NCBI GenBank assembly: GCA_944389525.1 | Contig: CALXMR010000001.1 | Coordinates: forward strand, 33,698 to 97,697 | Source of the DNA: an uncultured Alphaproteobacteria bacterium | GTDB taxonomy: Bacteria > Pseudomonadota > Alphaproteobacteria > Rs-D84 | Length of the DNA stretch: 64,000 nt | Direction: 5' to 3' | Part shown: positions 27,944 to 59,479 of the stretch, one piece after another | How the letters are laid out: every line of letters starts with the position of its first letter | How positions within the stretch are numbered: the stretch's first letter is position 1 | The notes under the pieces: model-generated | What the model saw: only the letters and a program-made list of their open reading frames with translations | What the model was told of the DNA's origin: nothing | The model's database searches: none | Position numbers and translations under genes: made by a program

Positions 27944-28810
27944 ATGAATTACATAGATGTTTTTTTAGAATCACTGGCCGCAGAACGCGGTCGCAGTCGC
28001 CGCACACTGGCCAGTTATGCCAGTGATTTGCATCATGCAGACGAAACACTGCCAAACGGTTTGATGGGTGCGACCGCTGTGGATATTCAAAATTATCTGT
28101 CCCACCTGCCCCAGCGCGCGACATCAATCGCCCGCCACGCCAGTGCACTGCGCGGTTTTTACAAATTTTTAATGTTGGAAAAAATTATCACAGAAAACCC
28201 GGCGGCAAATCTGGAATTGCCGAAACGCACACGTGCACTGCCGAAATTTTTATCGGTTGATGAAATAGAACTGTTAATTTCTTCGGCGGGCGATACAAAA
28301 AATGCAACGCGTTTGCGCGCGATGATGGAATTGGTATACGCATCAGGCCTGCGGGTATCTGAATTATGCGAACTGCCGATGACGGCAAATCTGGGCGACA
28401 AACTGCTGATTCATGGCAAAGGTGCCAAAGAACGAATCGTTCCCATGCATGAACGCGCCCAACATGCGTTACACAAATGGCTGGAAATTCGTGGTGACGA
28501 TAAATCAAAATATGTATTTCCATCCAACAGTAAATCTGGTCACATAACCCGCGATGGATTTTTCAAGATAATCAAAAAATGCGCTGTATTGGCGGGAATT
28601 GATCCCACCAGGGTCAGTCCGCACGTACTGCGTCATTCGTTCGCATCCCACCTGTTGGCGGGCGGGGCGAACCTGCGCGCGATTCAAACGATGCTGGGCC
28701 ACGAAGACATTTCAACAACCCAGATTTACACACATGTATTGCCCGAAAAATTAAAAGAAACCGTGCGTGCGCATCACCCGCTGGGGCATATGGGGGAAAA
28801 CGAATTATGA
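27944..28810 (+). CDS. xerD: site-specific tyrosine recombinase XerD
   Basis: The catalytic R..H..R..Y region (HVLRHSFASHLLAGGANLRAIQTMLGHEDISTTQIYTHV) and the XerD-like LLYASGLRVSEL segment. Confidence 0.8.
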   Translation: MNYIDVFLESLAAERGRSRRTLASYASDLHHADETLPNGLMGATAVDIQNYLSHLPQRATSIARHASALRGFYKFLMLEKIITENPAANLELPKRTRALPKFLSVDEIELLISSAGDTKNATRLRAMMELVYASGLRVSELCELPMTANLGDKLLIHGKGAKERIVPMHERAQHALHKWLEIRGDDKSKYVFPSNSKSGHITRDGFFKIIKKCAVLAGIDPTRVSPHVLRHSFASHLLAGGANLRAIQTMLGHEDISTTQIYTHVLPEKLKETVRAHHPLGHMGENEL

Positions 28811-56444: not shown

Positions 56445-56560
56445 TACCTGTCTCCTATTTTACCAACAATCCAGATTTTACTAAAAAAACGCCGGTTTTA
56501 CAATAACCCAGTTTGGCAAATTACGAACCTGTGGTTCTCATCTCACCACTCCATCACAAA

Positions 56561-56592
56561 ATAAAAATGCCCCATTCGGGACATTTTGATTT
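56561..56592. terminator. intrinsic terminator (tgcccc-attc-gggaca with A/T tracts)
   Basis: It lies downstream of the GNAT gene stop and adjacent to the tRNA-Tyr 3' fragment. Confidence 0.55.
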
Positions 56593-56611
56593 TGGTGGGA
56601 GTGGGTGGATT
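56592..56611 (-). repeat. 20-nt duplicate of the tRNA-Tyr 3' end (att-like direct repeat)
   Basis: ttggtgggagtgggtggatt is identical at 56592..56611 and 56761..56780. The latter is the true tRNA 3' end (...aatccacccactcccacca). Confidence 0.8.
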
Positions 56612-56727
56612 GTAATTCCCACCGCAATAAATTGCGGCGGGTCCCTTTCACTGCGCGCTGGCGCGCTTGTTCCGAACCAAACAATCTAGCGATTGTATGG
56701 CCTAATCCATATACCACACCCCAAAAT

Positions 56728-56758
56728 ATAAATACCCGCCATTCGGCGGGTATTTATA
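56728..56758 (-). terminator. intrinsic terminator (cccgcc-attc-ggcggg) immediately 3' of tRNA-Tyr
   Basis: A perfect 6 bp GC hairpin with AT-rich flanks, 4 nt beyond the tRNA CCA end. Confidence 0.65.
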
Positions 56759-56761
56759 CTT

Positions 56762-56848
56762 TGGTGGGAGTGGGTGGATTCGAACCACCTCAGGCTTAAG
56801 CCAACAGATTTACAGTCTGCCCCGGCTCTCCAACTCCGGCGCACGCCC
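56762..56848 (-). tRNA. tRNA-Tyr (anticodon GTA), class II with long variable arm, CCA encoded
   Basis: On the minus strand: GGGCGTG-CG-CCGG-AGTTGGAGAG-CCGG-G-GCAGA-CTGTAAA-TCTGT-TGGCTTAAGCCTGA-GGTGG-TTCGAAT-CCACC-CACTCCC-A-CCA. One C-U mismatch at acceptor pair 4-69. Confidence 0.8.
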
Positions 56849-56930
56849 AATCTCGTCTTCCGCCCGCCTGCGCCAGCGGCTTCGGTGGGCAATGGATTTT
56901 CAGCCCTTGCTGCGCTGCGGTGAAAATCCC

Positions 56931-56948
56931 TGGTGCGGGCAGCGGGAA
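56931..56948 (-). repeat. 18-nt duplicate of the tRNA-Gly 3' end (att-like direct repeat)
   Basis: tggtgcgggcagcgggaa is identical at 56931..56948 and 57045..57062, which is the true tRNA-Gly 3' end. Confidence 0.8.
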
Positions 56949-57044
56949 ACCGCGCGTATAAAAACACAACGAGTTGCGTTATTAGCAACGAGTTGATGTT
57001 TGCATCGCAAGGTTACCCAACTCATCGGCACCCCATCTCGTTTC

Positions 57045-57119
57045 TGGTGCGGGCAGCGGGAATCGAACCCGCATTTCAAGCTTGGAAGGCTTGCATACTA
57101 GCCTTTGTACTATGCCCGC
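57045..57119 (-). tRNA. tRNA-Gly (anticodon TCC), CCA encoded
   Basis: On the minus strand: GCGGGCA-TA-GTAC-AAAGGCTA-GTAT-G-CAAGC-CTTCCAA-GCTTG-AAAT-GCGGG-TTCGATT-CCCGC-TGCCCGC-A-CCA. The acceptor stem pairs perfectly. Confidence 0.9.
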
Positions 57120-57193: not shown

Positions 57194-58069
57194 CTAGCGA
57201 ATACCATGTATGATATCTTCCATTTCCAACAAGAAATCCATATCATACCCGCGGGCTTTTAAACGCTGCAACATCAAATGTGCTGCCTCTGCGACACCCA
57301 GGCTTTTGCATATTTCAACAACAGTTACAATTTCATCACGGTTCATTTTATCGGTTGGCATTAATGCAACCGCGACCCCTAATTCACGCAGTGCGGCGCG
57401 CATATACGCCCCACGATGATCCCGGCAACCGTATTCAAATAATACAGCGTATGTTTTGGCATTATTCAAAAAATCGCCATAATAATACGCCGCTGTATTA
57501 ATATTTTTCATAACACGATTTTCAATCGTTTCGCAAATTTTTTCATCAGAATACAAATATTCAATCGATGTCATTTCACTATTATCGTCCTCATATACTG
57601 CACGCAATCCATCCGCAATCGCCTGTTTGCGTGCGGCCAAATCCTGGAACAATTGGGCATTTTCTGGGCATCCGCGCTGTGCCAATACTGTATATATTTC
57701 CGCAGAATTTTGTTGATCATACCAATTCATCTCATCATCCGAGACTATACTTTTCAACAGTGTATCTTCAATAACCGCACAGGCGGGGCGAATGGCCAAA
57801 TCGGTATCTTCTGATTCCACACTGGCAACATCTGGCACAACCGTATCGTCTGGCACACTTGTCGGTATTTCTGTGGCAACTGCCGCTGCTGGTGTTGTTG
57901 CAACAGGGGCATTTTTGGCACCAATTATCCCACCATCATACAGCACCCATGCCGCCGCACCAACCAAGATTAATACAACCAACACAGTCCATAACCGCAC
58001 CCGCCGTGCATGACGTTTTGTATTGCTGCGTGATGTATTTGATGTTTTTTCTTTCATTTTCCCCCCCAT
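57194..58069 (-). CDS. membrane-anchored hypothetical protein (paralog family member 1; Cys-bracketed helical modules)
   Basis: An N-terminal basic segment plus TM anchor (RLWTVLVVLILVGAAAWVL) and a P/T/V-rich linker. Its modules C..IE..L..Y..QN..Y..LA..GC.ENA and its C-terminus DMDFLLEMEDIIHGI are shared with 58760..59479. Confidence 0.55.
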   Translation of the reverse strand: MGGKMKEKTSNTSRSNTKRHARRVRLWTVLVVLILVGAAAWVLYDGGIIGAKNAPVATTPAAAVATEIPTSVPDDTVVPDVASVESEDTDLAIRPACAVIEDTLLKSIVSDDEMNWYDQQNSAEIYTVLAQRGCPENAQLFQDLAARKQAIADGLRAVYEDDNSEMTSIEYLYSDEKICETIENRVMKNINTAAYYYGDFLNNAKTYAVLFEYGCRDHRGAYMRAALRELGVAVALMPTDKMNRDEIVTVVEICKSLGVAEAAHLMLQRLKARGYDMDFLLEMEDIIHGIR

Positions 58070-58083
58070 CTGGTTTATTTAAC

Positions 58084-58767
58084 TTATAGTCCTGGTATTG
58101 CACTGCCATCATTCAGTGGCGCATGGCATTCACCATCCCCATCGTCTGGACAGCACATAAATTCCAGATTACCTGTATCCCGGAATGTTTCACCATCACA
58201 ACATCCGAACTTATTCGGCGCATCCCCATTCGGGCACAGACCGGCCGCCATATTTGCCACCGCTGTTTCAGTATCAATTACCACCGCTGATTTATCGATG
58301 TCATCACCGCAATCAGCACTGTATTGATTGCGCAACGGCTGTAATTCGTCATCTGTGGCCCCGCCCGATTCCAGCGCACTGATATCCGCCGTCAATCCAT
58401 CGCACAATGTGCGCCGCGCCGTCAGATAATTTGTCAGCACATTGTATGCAGTCACGGTTTCCACCGCCGTGGTTACAGGCACCGCCGTATCTGTTGTTGC
58501 CACCACAGACATAGTTGATACCCGACCAGACGTTCGCCGCCCTGCGGCCGCACGCGCACAACTGGTCCGATATTGATTTTGCAAATTGGCCAATTCTGTC
58601 GCCGTTGCATCATCAGGATTCGCAATCGCCGTCAATTCGCCAATACGATTACTAATTGCTGTACAATCAACCGCCGCCCTATCTGCGACCGTGCCATCTG
58701 CCGCCACGGCCACCCCCAGTGGCATACAAATCAAGAATGCAAAAAACCCAACTAGACTTTTATTCAT
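58084..58767 (-). CDS. secreted Cys-rich repeat protein
   Basis: A cleavable signal peptide (MNKSLVGFFAFLICMPLGVAVAADG). It has two internal ~40 aa repeats, each bracketed by Cys (DCTAISNRIGELTAIANPDDATATELANLQNQYRTSCA / LCDGLTADISALESGGATDDELQPLRNQYSADCG). The C-terminus is a CC..CC..C cluster. Confidence 0.55.
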   Translation of the reverse strand: MNKSLVGFFAFLICMPLGVAVAADGTVADRAAVDCTAISNRIGELTAIANPDDATATELANLQNQYRTSCARAAAGRRTSGRVSTMSVVATTDTAVPVTTAVETVTAYNVLTNYLTARRTLCDGLTADISALESGGATDDELQPLRNQYSADCGDDIDKSAVVIDTETAVANMAAGLCPNGDAPNKFGCCDGETFRDTGNLEFMCCPDDGDGECHAPLNDGSAIPGL

Positions 58768-59479
58768 TTATTATCTGTTCCATTTGTAAGATAAAATCAG
58801 TTGCTGGATCAACCAAGCGTTCAATTTTATCCAAAAACTCCCTGGCTTCTTGTTGCATATCCAGTTTTTTAAATGTATCTATTACGATTTCTGCATCACC
58901 TTCGCCCATATCTTCTTCGGGTTGTAATGCGGATGCAATTTCCAATTCACGCAACGCCAAAGCCTTGTACATATCTGCATTTTCGGCACATCCCTTGTCC
59001 GCCAGTGAACTGTAAGTATCGGCGTTTTGCAAATGTTTCCAATATTCTGGGCTGTCTTCGGAATACAGACGCTGGACCAACAGTTTTTCAATACGCATGC
59101 ATGTCGACATAATTTCTGGCCGCGATGCAGGTGTATCCACACTGGCCACTGAGGCGGGCGCATCGCGTTCAATTATAACCAGACGCCCGGCGCATCCACT
59201 TGTATACGCGGCGTTTAATTCGTTCAAGATTTTTGCATCTTCGGCATTTGCGCCGCGTTGCGTAATGGACACAATTTCATTTGCGATTGCATCACATTGT
59301 TCAATGCTCAACACATCGCGCGCGACCGGTTCGCCCCTGTATGTCAGGCCCAACATCAATCCACACACAAACAGCCCCGCCAACGCAATTGCACCCCAAA
59401 CCTTGTGCGATGTACTGCAACAGTTAATTGGACATGGCGCCGGCTGCTTTTTTGCCGTTGTCTTTTTTGTTTTTTGCAT
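58760..59479 (-). CDS. membrane-anchored hypothetical protein (paralog family member 2)
   Basis: A TM anchor (GAIALAGLFVCGLMLGL). The module EQCDAIANEIVSITQRGANAEDAKILNELNAAYTSGCAG resembles the repeat of the secreted protein. The STCMRIEKLL..YSEDSPEYWKHLQNADTYSSLADKGCAENADMYKAL module and the C-terminal TDFILQMEQIINE parallel member 1. Confidence 0.55.
   Translation of the reverse strand: MQKTKKTTAKKQPAPCPINCCSTSHKVWGAIALAGLFVCGLMLGLTYRGEPVARDVLSIEQCDAIANEIVSITQRGANAEDAKILNELNAAYTSGCAGRLVIIERDAPASVASVDTPASRPEIMSTCMRIEKLLVQRLYSEDSPEYWKHLQNADTYSSLADKGCAENADMYKALALRELEIASALQPEEDMGEGDAEIVIDTFKKLDMQQEAREFLDKIERLVDPATDFILQMEQIINE

Follow-up and report, generated by a model that had tools for sequence, protein, structure and literature searches.

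Repeated tRNA 3′ ends at the Gly–Tyr pair

The window, by which we mean the whole 64-kb stretch of DNA analysed here, carries a tRNA-Gly and a tRNA-Tyr gene side by side, a pair that is kept in nearly all of 116 related loci. Both genes lie on the minus strand, so that downstream, in gene orientation, means towards lower coordinates. An earlier note, made from the letters alone, had reported that the 3′ end of each gene recurs downstream of it, and both recurrences are exact. The Tyr repeat comprises 21 nt (plus strand TTTGGTGGGAGTGGGTGGATT; 56591–56611 and 56760–56780; period 169 bp) and the Gly repeat 19 nt (CTGGTGCGGGCAGCGGGAA; 56930–56948 and 57044–57062; period 114 bp), and their cores are the last 19 nt of tRNA-Tyr (nt 58–76) and the last 18 nt of tRNA-Gly (nt 59–76), respectively (Table 1). 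This span from T-loop to CCA is the usual form of att repeats in tRNA genes. Each repeat occurs exactly twice in the 64 kb with up to three mismatches allowed (0.00 expected from 100 shuffles), which is non-random. Two assemblies made independently from separate samples (L001, ENA; L006, Logan) match the window at 100% identity over both repeats, which shows that these are not an assembly artefact.

Table 1. Features of the tRNA-Gly/tRNA-Tyr locus, in gene order.
Feature	Positions	Strand	Basis or remark
tRNA-Gly(UCC), first gene of the Gly–Tyr pair	57045..57119	−	ARAGORN; Rfam tRNA 71 bits
Gly rod unit, 96-nt insert directly after the tRNA-Gly CCA	56949..57044	−	
Distal 18-nt copy of tRNA-Gly nt 59–76, TTCCCGCTGCCCGCACCA, exact; base 56930 also identical	56931..56948	−	
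Ancestral Gly–Tyr spacer with two hairpins	56849..56930	−	Directly 3′ of tRNA-Gly in L009
tRNA-Tyr(GUA), acceptor-stem mismatch C4.U69	56762..56848	−	ARAGORN; Rfam tRNA 38.5 bits, one non-standard pair marked
Long terminator-like hairpin (A-tract/GC/T-tract) that opens the Tyr unit; stem extends into the tRNA 3′ end	56721..56761	−	
Body of the Y unit: 5′ segment GGGG(U)GUGG, then four hairpins	56612..56720	−	Folding and homologues
Distal 19-nt copy of tRNA-Tyr nt 58–76, AATCCACCCACTCCCACCA, exact; next two A (56591–56592) also common	56593..56611	−	
Terminator-like hairpin after the distal Tyr copy	56564..56587	−	Same hairpin 3′ of a Tyr copy in L009, L010 and L031
Truncated 5′ fragment of an older X-type unit, GGAGTGGTGAGATGAGAACCACAGGTTCG, without a tRNA copy of its own	56523..56552	−	Model R2

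Integrase genes and further copies of the repeats had been proposed as search targets. There is no integrase between the window's repeats, the only related gene in the whole 64 kb is XerC/D-like (27944–28810), and a third copy of either repeat is absent from the window; integrases were found at tRNA-Tyr of relatives, as described below. The neighbouring Cys-module genes, which had been suggested to be cargo left behind by an element, lie 5′ of tRNA-Gly and are enclosed by no repeat, and nothing points to them as cargo. Relatives have genes of similar size at the position of these Cys-rich genes, likewise without Pfam matches; the likeness is one of size and position only.

Structured units behind the two tRNA genes

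In the Gly unit, ~27 variable nt on the 5′ side precede a conserved long hairpin, the rod, whose apical hairpin (GTTGC-TAATAAC-GCAAC) is followed by a U-rich stretch and whose base is formed by the first bases of the distal Gly copy (TTCCC). The 10-nt tandem motif that had been remarked in this spacer is real: CAACGAGTTG occurs twice, at 56967–56976 and 56986–56995, as parts of the two arms of this one hairpin, and a terminator-like site lies within the rod at 56973–56989. In an alignment of Gly rods, 99.7% of cells are paired over 24 pairs, five of which show compensatory changes, and the covariation score of 0.18 (0.088 in shuffles) is reached in 0 of 500 shuffles. A covariance model of the rod (R1) scores 138.8 bits on 56931–57044, its sole match in the window. 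In relatives, the rod core lies behind four different tRNA sequences, and the copied end is always that of the local tRNA, including a variant tRNA-Gly(UCC), tRNA-Gly(CCC) and tRNA-Glu. A promoter-like sequence was seen by eye only 5′ of tRNA-Gly, at a site that the promoter scan did not flag. As the rod is placed between the two tRNA genes, with such a sequence only upstream of the first, it is probably transcribed together with the tRNAs.

The Tyr unit, referred to as Y, opens with an inverted repeat (arms 56721–56740 and 56745–56764; 20 nt, 95% complementary), and a terminator-like hairpin of this kind comes after every Tyr copy in relatives. The body that follows has a minimum free energy (MFE) of −52 kcal/mol (z = −4.25) and carries, between its second and third hairpins, the motif GGTTCG, which is invariant in 27 units. 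Homologues of the Y unit are present in L022, L028, L070, L072, L098 and L115. By eye, the 5′ segment can pair with nt 65–72 of the tRNA copy (eight pairs, one bulge); in the MFE fold, this pairing is formed in a shifted register. Covariation was assessed on a curated alignment of the Y subfamily, the mixed set of Y-type units having aligned too poorly for RNAalifold; 91.5% of its cells pair, and support from covariation is weak, with two compensatory pairs and 19 of 500 shuffles. Further downstream, model R2 scores 31.2 bits (E = 9e-7) on 56457–56552, although the alignment is convincing for no more than the first ~30 nt, and the same X-type remnant precedes a GNAT gene in L009, L010 and L027.

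Two further unit types occur in relatives. X units show five compensatory pairs and a P1-like pairing, GGAGUGG/CCACUCC, recognised by eye. Z units have compensatory changes at 11 of 28 pairs and a clear P1-like helix of eight pairs, a closing helix that draws on the tRNA copy; in all of these P1-like pairings the 3′ strand is fixed. The segments enclosed by the window's repeats are members of structured families conserved across many species and not arbitrary remnants of deletion, one of the two possibilities raised in the earlier note.

Rfam searches of the window region and of eight relatives placed no unit above threshold. Matches to psRNA14, STnc370 and microRNAs were look-alikes of terminators and hairpins. 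A tmRNA or permuted tmRNA was rejected at 15–19 bits, with none called by ARAGORN and an acceptor identity of Tyr, not Ala; by eye, there was no plausible tag frame in rod or Z units. Neither ARAGORN nor the Rfam tRNA model recognises a tRNA in the units, their calls being confined to the two true genes, and a search for intron-bearing tRNAs or pseudo-tRNAs with relaxed ARAGORN settings gave only spurious calls. A primer-binding site would be as long as the 18 nt of nt 59–76; none of the genes checked encoded a reverse transcriptase, and an origin of the copies from a retro-element is only remotely conceivable. When viral contigs were scanned with 25-mers and 18/19-mers taken from the 3′ ends of the two tRNA genes, there were 0 matches, and a scan with the apical 17-mer of the rod yielded 13, which is chance level only.

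Empty sites, arrays and integrase islands in relatives

Alignment with orthologous loci, as the earlier note had recommended, revealed insertion polymorphism at both sites among the relatives compared (Ca. Enterousia and allied gut Alphaproteobacteria). The Gly site is empty in L009 and L022 and occupied in the window, L011, L012 and L017, both states being seen in two different downstream contexts; at the Tyr site, L011 has two units that L012 is without. Spacing between the two tRNA genes is 5–13 nt in ~30 species and up to 229 nt elsewhere. The ancestral layout is tRNA-Gly, 5–13 nt, tRNA-Tyr, to which the window has added 114 bp behind tRNA-Gly and 169 bp behind tRNA-Tyr, each addition bounded by an exact copy of the tRNA end.

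A scan of a genome collection found a second copy in ~45–50 of 116 matched stretches, nearly all from related gut Alphaproteobacteria. In relatives, the DNA behind tRNA-Tyr holds arrays in which up to six full or decayed copies mark off units and gene cassettes; the cassettes have conserved ends and alternate with the units. L017 has three tandem Tyr units, and in L022 units and cassettes are delimited by six 19-mers, of which five are perfect, counting the end of the tRNA itself, and the other carries a single mismatch. The distal Tyr copies are progressively decayed in L011, L012 and L072. Perfect identity of the proximal copies between species may reflect gene conversion instead of turnover. 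Copy length differs by unit type, from 15 to 22 nt, and the left boundary falls at nt 58/59 for Tyr and Gly in Enterousia and likewise for Tyr in Escherichia coli.

The same tRNA end also receives larger elements. In L090, the window's 19-mer occurs in two perfect copies that flank a 4.46-kb element with a tyrosine integrase; L135 has a similar integrase element after tRNA-Tyr with four errors in its distal copy, and L276 an integrase directly 3′ of tRNA-Tyr, with no distal copy within the DNA covered, so that two perfect flanking 19-mers are found in L090 alone among these three. Related integrases, from a family of >230 clusters, are located at tRNA-Thr and tRNA-Lys (the Lys island with a 16-nt repeat), and the islands carry rolling-circle Rep-like genes (PF23343). 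Tyrosine integrases targeting tRNA 3′ ends are abundant in the clade, but arm sequences such as those of the single island compared are missing from the units. L074 is a clear deletion derivative, in which part of an X unit is joined to the right-hand 1.3 kb of an element resembling that of L090. When the L090 and L135 elements were compared by blastn with all units and cassettes, only the 19-mer matched. The units are therefore not the joined ends of an L090-type island, and the arm sites of that integrase are absent from them. At the Gly site, no large or integrase-bearing element was found in any species examined.

Origin of the units and comparison with known systems

The reading we lean towards, with somewhat more confidence than doubt, is that the duplicates are the 3′ termini of small, gene-less structured modules that sit directly behind the tRNA CCA and are tRNA-derived, non-autonomous and situated in a recombination hot spot. 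New DNA would enter by recombination inside the last 18–19 bp of the tRNA gene. The incoming piece would bring a tRNA end with it and displace the old end downstream, so that the newest unit would adjoin the tRNA. Having no recombinase gene, the modules would be moved in trans by a recombinase, and unequal crossing-over between copies would add or remove units. They would be co-transcribed with the tRNAs; by analogy with what is reported for E. coli RtT, the copied tRNA end and its 5′ complement could then form an acceptor-like helix and permit release by the tRNA-processing machinery. Against this reading stand the XerC/D-like protein as the window's only recombinase, the lack of common sequence beyond the 19-mer between the units and the island ends, the Gly site without an island in any species examined, the weak covariation of the Y subfamily, and two features that a simple attL/attR model does not predict, a ~96-nt duplication that flanks the rod core behind tRNA-Glu in L271 and a terminator that is repeated as well in L207.

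The earlier note had read the repeats as att footprints, and part of that reading stands: the form of the repeats, the empty and occupied sites and the Tyr integrase islands all agree with it, while the enclosed DNA does not correspond to the ends of the elements compared and no island was seen at the Gly site. Taken as a full explanation, it would make the locus the residue of integrase islands at both tRNAs that were almost entirely deleted, the 96–150 bp being neutral junk in minimal CIMEs. Islands do occupy tRNA-Tyr in L090, L135 and L276, real deletion does occur (L074), distal copies do decay, and accretion and decay of this sort are known from CIMEs (PMC5704250) and from tycheposon islands (10.1101/2020.12.28.424599). 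Independent deletions, however, would not converge on the same 96 nt and 150 nt in many species, and conservation as families with compensatory changes disfavours junk. The units are also unlike island ends, the Gly site is never seen with an island, and E. coli has this design with no integrase at all. We regard plain footprints as unlikely.

A slightly stronger though still doubtful candidate is a self-standing miniature mobile cassette, in which a folded single strand (RNA or single-stranded DNA) would mimic the tRNA end and a dedicated enzyme would insert it at nt 58/59, building leader-proximal arrays as in integron attC cassettes or CRISPR repeat duplication. The rod core, which behind each of four tRNA sequences comes with that tRNA's own 3′ end, would fit this, as would the X-like body joined to a tRNA-Gly(CCC) end in L207, the fixed left boundary (Enterousia Tyr and Gly, E. 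coli Tyr), the gene cassettes with conserved ends that alternate with units, and selection on structure rather than sequence. The Rep-like genes (PF23343) on the islands make single-stranded DNA forms plausible. Yet no enzyme emerged as a candidate, free or circular forms are undocumented, the boundary differs by unit type, and ordinary integrase action with unequal crossing-over fits all of the observations too.

It is improbable, in our judgement, that the units are instead decayed tandem tRNA duplicates, that is, pseudo-tRNAs without mobility whose 3′ end is kept by gene conversion. Their landmarks do follow tRNA order: a 5′ segment GCGGGCA resembles the acceptor 5′ strand in the Gly units of species with a variant tRNA, GGGG(U)GUG in Y compares with GGGCGUG in tRNA-Tyr, and a T-loop-like GGTTCG or TTCGG motif precedes the true 3′ end; the E. 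coli pair tyrT–tyrV, moreover, is itself a tandemly duplicated tRNA gene, and its spacer holds an RtT unit. But the units go unrecognised by tRNA detectors, distal copies show no homogenisation, close relatives have different unit types at the same site, and empty sites exist. The rod behind tRNA-Glu and tRNA-Gly(CCC) weakens the idea further, since the same core behind unrelated tRNAs was not derived locally each time. Returning to the non-autonomous modules, a broader conjecture, which we hold only tentatively and think rather unlikely, is that RtT-type units (those of E. coli included) and the rod together form a widespread unrecognised class of tRNA-mimicking, non-autonomous mini-cassettes, inserted structure-dependently at nt 58/59, which would carry or regenerate the local tRNA end and whose leader-proximal arrays would also capture protein-coding cassettes. 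If such a class is real, it would be a tRNA-anchored analogue of integron and CRISPR arrays, even in genomes of <1 Mb.

The design of the E. coli RtT repeats is now seen in distant uncultured gut Alphaproteobacteria of the order Rs-D84, where natural variation (empty sites, tandem copies, unit types, cassettes, and a 19-mer that integrase islands also use) allows the question of what RtT repeats are to be tested by comparison. A genome of <1 Mb here tolerates or needs several hundred base pairs of non-coding but structured DNA following tRNA genes that are apparently single-copy, and strain-specific genes build up at the tRNA-Tyr end, a hot spot of repeated insertion by mobile DNA. For annotation, short duplicates of tRNA ends should not automatically be taken as island scars.

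Among known systems, integron attC cassettes are alike by analogy only, in that promoterless-looking cassettes without a recombinase stand in an array, separated by imperfectly palindromic sites whose structure is conserved more than their sequence; in contrast to integrons, the repeat here is a tRNA 3′ end, and no IntI/attI or R′/R′′ (GTTRRRY) boxes were noticed in the loci inspected. Accretion of CIMEs and integrative elements at tRNA 3′ ends shares the direct repeats of the tRNA end, att sites without an integrase, newer elements adjoining the gene with older, decayed ones further out, and integrase-bearing relatives at the same site (PMC5704250). It differs in that the units here are gene-less, 96–150 nt long, conserved as structured families over many species and unrelated in sequence to the ends of local integrase islands. 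Prochlorococcus tycheposon islands are likewise hypervariable and seeded at tRNA genes of a streamlined genome, with partial tRNA copies separating successive insertions and degenerate remnants; in the portion of that work consulted, the remnants are fragmented integrases and partial tRNAs, and no conserved family of gene-less, structured units is described (10.1101/2020.12.28.424599).

The Tyr unit is close in design to RtT (gene rttR). The 178-bp repeats that follow tRNA-Tyr in E. coli came to light in the late 1970s, and their RNA product, rtT, in 1991. In E. coli tyrTV, we find the 19-mer of nt 58–76 six times, three of these downstream at a 178-bp period; used as a control, the Rfam RtT model (RF00391) scores 133–137 bits there, its P1 helix pairing the unit 5′ end with the tRNA copy. 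The rtT RNA is a product of these repeats, freed from the transcript of the tRNA operon (PMC3318445, PMC4986893). By score, the window Y unit and the X units fail membership of RF00391: Y had no match at E ≤ 10, and the X units of L017 align end to end at 14 bits, below the gathering threshold of 45 bits; reciprocally, our X-unit covariance model falls in register on E. coli RtT at only 6.7–7.6 bits. Besides this low sequence likeness, the units here differ from RtT in opening with an intrinsic-terminator-like hairpin, in being interleaved with protein-coding cassettes and integrase islands, and in their host, an alphaproteobacterium with a genome of <1 Mb. Shared with RtT are the position directly behind tRNA-Tyr, a similar unit length (178 nt in E. 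coli and 157–191 nt here, with 169 nt in the window), an exact end of every unit in nt 58–76 of the preceding tRNA-Tyr, the blocks GAUGAGAAsC, GGUUCGAC and UGCCsGCAGGC of X units in preserved order, and a copy number that varies, with some strains having no units (PMC3318445). A P1-like pairing of the unit's 5′ part with the T-stem/acceptor 3′ strand may be a further common trait, being clear in Z units and seen by eye in X and Y. On the evidence of sequence and predicted pairing, the Tyr module is built like an E. coli RtT repeat, from its putative 5′ complement through the GGUUCG motif and hairpins to its end in nt 58–76.

Duplicated tRNA ends in the window

The earlier note had reported that tRNA-Tyr and tRNA-Gly are each followed by a duplicate of their own 3' end. 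Both duplicates are present (19 nt for Tyr and 18 nt for Gly), and the window contains exactly two occurrences of either pattern with up to three mismatches permitted, where none is expected by chance. The same arrangement is found for both repeats in independent assemblies from other samples. The 10-nt tandem motif described in the Gly spacer, CAACGAGTTG x2, was confirmed as well and belongs to both arms of one hairpin.

Features at the tRNA locus and the recombinase gene (window coordinates)
Feature	Position	Strand	Details
XerC/D-like tyrosine recombinase	27944-28810	plus	PF00589, E = 1e-43; PF02899
Copy of last 19 nt of tRNA-Tyr (nt 58-76)	56593-56611		AATCCACCCACTCCCACCA, plus two A in common; 169 bp downstream, gene orientation
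Body of the Y unit	56612-56720	minus	gene-less unit behind tRNA-Tyr
tRNA-Tyr(gta)	56762-56848	minus
Gly-Tyr spacer	56849-56930	minus	82 nt, two hairpins
Copy of last 18 nt of tRNA-Gly (nt 59-76)	56931-56948		TTCCCGCTGCCCGCACCA, plus one G in common; 114 bp downstream
Rod insert	56949-57044	minus	96 nt, directly after tRNA-Gly CCA
tRNA-Gly(tcc)	57045-57119	minus
Three adjacent Cys-containing proteins	57194-59479	minus	291, 227 and 239 aa; between lolD and tRNA-Gly

Flanking genes and a scan for the Tyr 19-mer, with one genome per species, assign the window to Ca. Enterousia and related uncultured Alphaproteobacteria of the gut; Enterousia belongs to order Rs-D84 and has genomes smaller than ~1 Mb (PMC12306168). 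tRNA-Gly and tRNA-Tyr are paired in nearly all of the 116 related loci recovered (L-numbers below denote individual loci and contigs). The two genes lie 5-13 nt apart in ~30 species, taken here as the ancestral state, and are separated by a spacer of up to 229 nt in others. Diverged relatives of the window's spacer occur in many species with stems apparently kept, and the spacer may represent an internal element that is processed. The window tRNA-Tyr has a C4.U69 mismatch in its acceptor stem and C at position 8, which is usually U. Its 5' end was matched with at most three errors in ~100 related loci; in L011 (1100-1204) it reads GGTGCGCC versus GGGCGTGCGCC and the gene is uncalled by ARAGORN, a sign either of misassembly or of gene damage in that strain. 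Five short contigs assembled from other samples (L002, L003, L005, L007 and L008) stop within tRNA-Tyr, two at precisely its 3' end; assembly graphs may branch there through the repeat or population heterogeneity.

Structured modules behind tRNA-Gly and tRNA-Tyr

Comparison with the tRNA loci of relatives, as the earlier note had proposed, revealed empty and occupied Gly sites and variable Tyr arrays. In L009 and L022, tRNA-Gly adjoins the downstream spacer directly, and in the window, L011, L012 and L017 the 96 nt and the 18-nt copy stand at exactly the same point; each state was found with two different downstream sequences. The insert occurs once in the window and in 16 of 100 related loci searched, without exception between tRNA-Gly and tRNA-Tyr. 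It folds as a long rod hairpin, with 24 aligned pairs (5 with compensatory changes, 99.7% of cells paired) and a covariation score of 0.18, versus 0.088 for shuffles and ≤0.059 with partners slid. A metagenome scan using the invariant apical 17-mer as query also located the rod core behind variant tRNA-Gly(UCC), tRNA-Gly(CCC) and tRNA-Glu(CUC), each followed by a copy of its own 3' end. In L164 (12050-12135) the core lies without a tRNA copy in a divergent intergenic region, with compensatory changes in its stem, upstream of a tpiA-like gene (the N-terminus reads by eye as triose-phosphate isomerase); ~200 nt beyond there may be another rod-like stretch, in degenerate form. In L271 (853-1170, counted on the reverse complement), a ~96-nt duplication flanks the core behind tRNA-Glu(ctc); made up of the tRNA end, a tandem pair of 30-nt repeats and a further 16 nt, it is far longer than the usual 18 nt.

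The region downstream of tRNA-Tyr ranges from nothing to long arrays, with at least two copies in about 45-50 of 116 matched stretches and an A-tract/GC/T-tract hairpin after every copy. L017 has three 176-nt units in tandem; L022 carries five perfect 19-mers (the tRNA's own end included) and a sixth with one mismatch, bounding gene-less units, a GNAT cassette and a small lipoprotein cassette. Distal copies degenerate progressively in L011, L012 and L072. Gene-less units fall into types X, Y (that of the window) and Z, plus intermediates, all with an invariant GGTTCG motif and a tRNA copy as 3' terminus. Compensatory pairs were found in X units (n = 5) and Z units (11 of 28, including a closing helix in which the tRNA copy takes part); covariation support for the Y subfamily is weak, its sequences being too uniform, and the window Y unit folds much better than shuffles (z = -4.25). 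Beyond the window's distal Tyr copy lie 30 nt left over from an older X unit, a remnant common to L009, L010 and L027.

Z units (180-260 nt) have no Rfam match, are absent from the window and form the distal-most unit after tRNA-Tyr in L046, L073, L082, L086, L096, L108, L120, L125, L141 and others. They start with GGGAGTGGGTGGAT, complementary to the 3' strand of the tRNA, and finish with ATCAAGGnnCACCCACTCCCACCA; they are a candidate new tRNA-end-mimicking RNA. Protein-coding cassettes between tRNA-Tyr and the GNAT gene in L011, L012, L022 and L123 encode a second GNAT, small proteins of 67 and 78 aa, and a 254-aa protein; they have ~100-nt left and right ends in common, and partial tRNA-Tyr ends (for example, ACTCCCACCA, AATCCCCCACCA and TCTTCCACCA) form their boundaries.

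Integrase islands and the origin of the duplicates

The earlier note read the duplicates as attachment-site footprints enclosing deletion remnants of integrated elements, and the search for integrases supports this in part. L090 holds a 4.46-kb element with a perfect 19-mer copy at either side, a 502-aa tyrosine integrase (PF00589, E = 3e-13) as first gene and a rolling-circle Rep-like gene; L135 has a similar element whose distal copy contains four errors. This integrase family comprises >230 clusters in the protein collection, with members directly 3' of tRNA-Tyr (L276), tRNA-Thr (L278) and tRNA-Lys (L281); a 16-nt repeat of the tRNA end marks the limits of the tRNA-Lys island. The wider island family at these three tRNA 3' ends (L090, L135 and L276-L282) encodes a ~500-aa integrase, a protein of the DUF5906 or DUF927 type, a REP_ORF2-G2P-like Rep and cargo, for example genes for restriction-modification or superinfection immunity, and has conserved left ends (AAAAACATTnGAAAAnC plus a hairpin). 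L074 is a deletion derivative in which a partial X unit is joined to the right-hand end of an L090-like element. The tRNA-Tyr end therefore does serve as an attachment site in this clade, where deletion remnants also exist.

The window itself has only the XerC/D-like gene, the sole recombinase recognised among ORFs ≥100 aa in a survey whose Pfam run covered that ORF alone, and no island was seen at the Gly site in any species examined. The enclosed segments are not arbitrary remnants: they are members of conserved structured families and have nothing beyond the 19-mer in common with the ends of the islands compared. Nor does anything mark the Cys-containing genes as left-behind cargo, as had been suggested; no tRNA-end repeat encloses them, they have no Pfam matches on record, and relatives carry similar-sized genes at their position. 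In our interpretation the duplicates are, in line with the footprint reading, joints formed by recombination within the tRNA 3' end, but the DNA they bound belongs to conserved, tRNA-derived, structured module families and is not scraps.

Perfect copies adjoin the tRNA and decayed ones lie farther out, which suggests that new units would enter beside the tRNA gene and accretion proceed outwards; such polarity is described both for CIMEs and for tycheposon islands (PMC5704250; 10.1101/2020.12.28.424599). The tandem identical units of L017 and the shuffled terminator/body combinations are consistent with unequal crossing-over inside the 19-mer, which could multiply and shuffle units. The Gly copy would keep the ancestral tRNA-end/spacer junction intact, and the rod, lying between two tRNA genes served, as far as seen, by one promoter, is probably part of the tRNA precursor. 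A simple attL/attR scheme fits neither the 96-nt duplication of L271 nor a repeated terminator in L207, and a dedicated, structure-dependent mechanism behind unit movement is possible.

Comparison with the E. coli RtT repeats

The K-12 tyrT-tyrV operon contains six copies of its own tRNA-Tyr 19-mer (nt 58-76): two in the genes, one in the intergenic spacer and three downstream with a period of 178 bp. The Rfam RtT model (RF00391) identifies four units there (133-137 bits), and in its consensus the unit 5' end pairs with the tRNA-derived strand. The repeat units are the source of rtT RNA, which is freed from the tRNA operon transcript (PMC3318445, PMC4986893). The same block order is seen in Enterousia X units: tRNA-strand complement, GAUGAGAAsC, GGUUCGAC, UGCCsGCAGGC and an AAUCC...CCA end. 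However, X units score 14 bits against the 45-bit gathering threshold and the reverse comparison gives ~7 bits, both far too low for membership, and the window Y unit has no match to the model, so we regard the units as apparently RtT-like in look and working without classing them as RtT members. In E. coli SK1144 (L275, NZ_AP018784.2:2698000-2728000), tyrT and tyrV lie 33 nt apart, RtT units are absent and the tyrV-narI interval holds a 7-kb lipid-modifying cluster (desaturases, PAP2, F390 synthetase-like and KAS III), indicating that the E. coli tyrT 3' region is likewise a variable locus. Among known systems, the Enterousia modules come closest to a combination of the RtT repeat with tandem accretion at an attachment site in a tRNA gene, and the long-standing RtT puzzle gains from this locus a rich comparative system.
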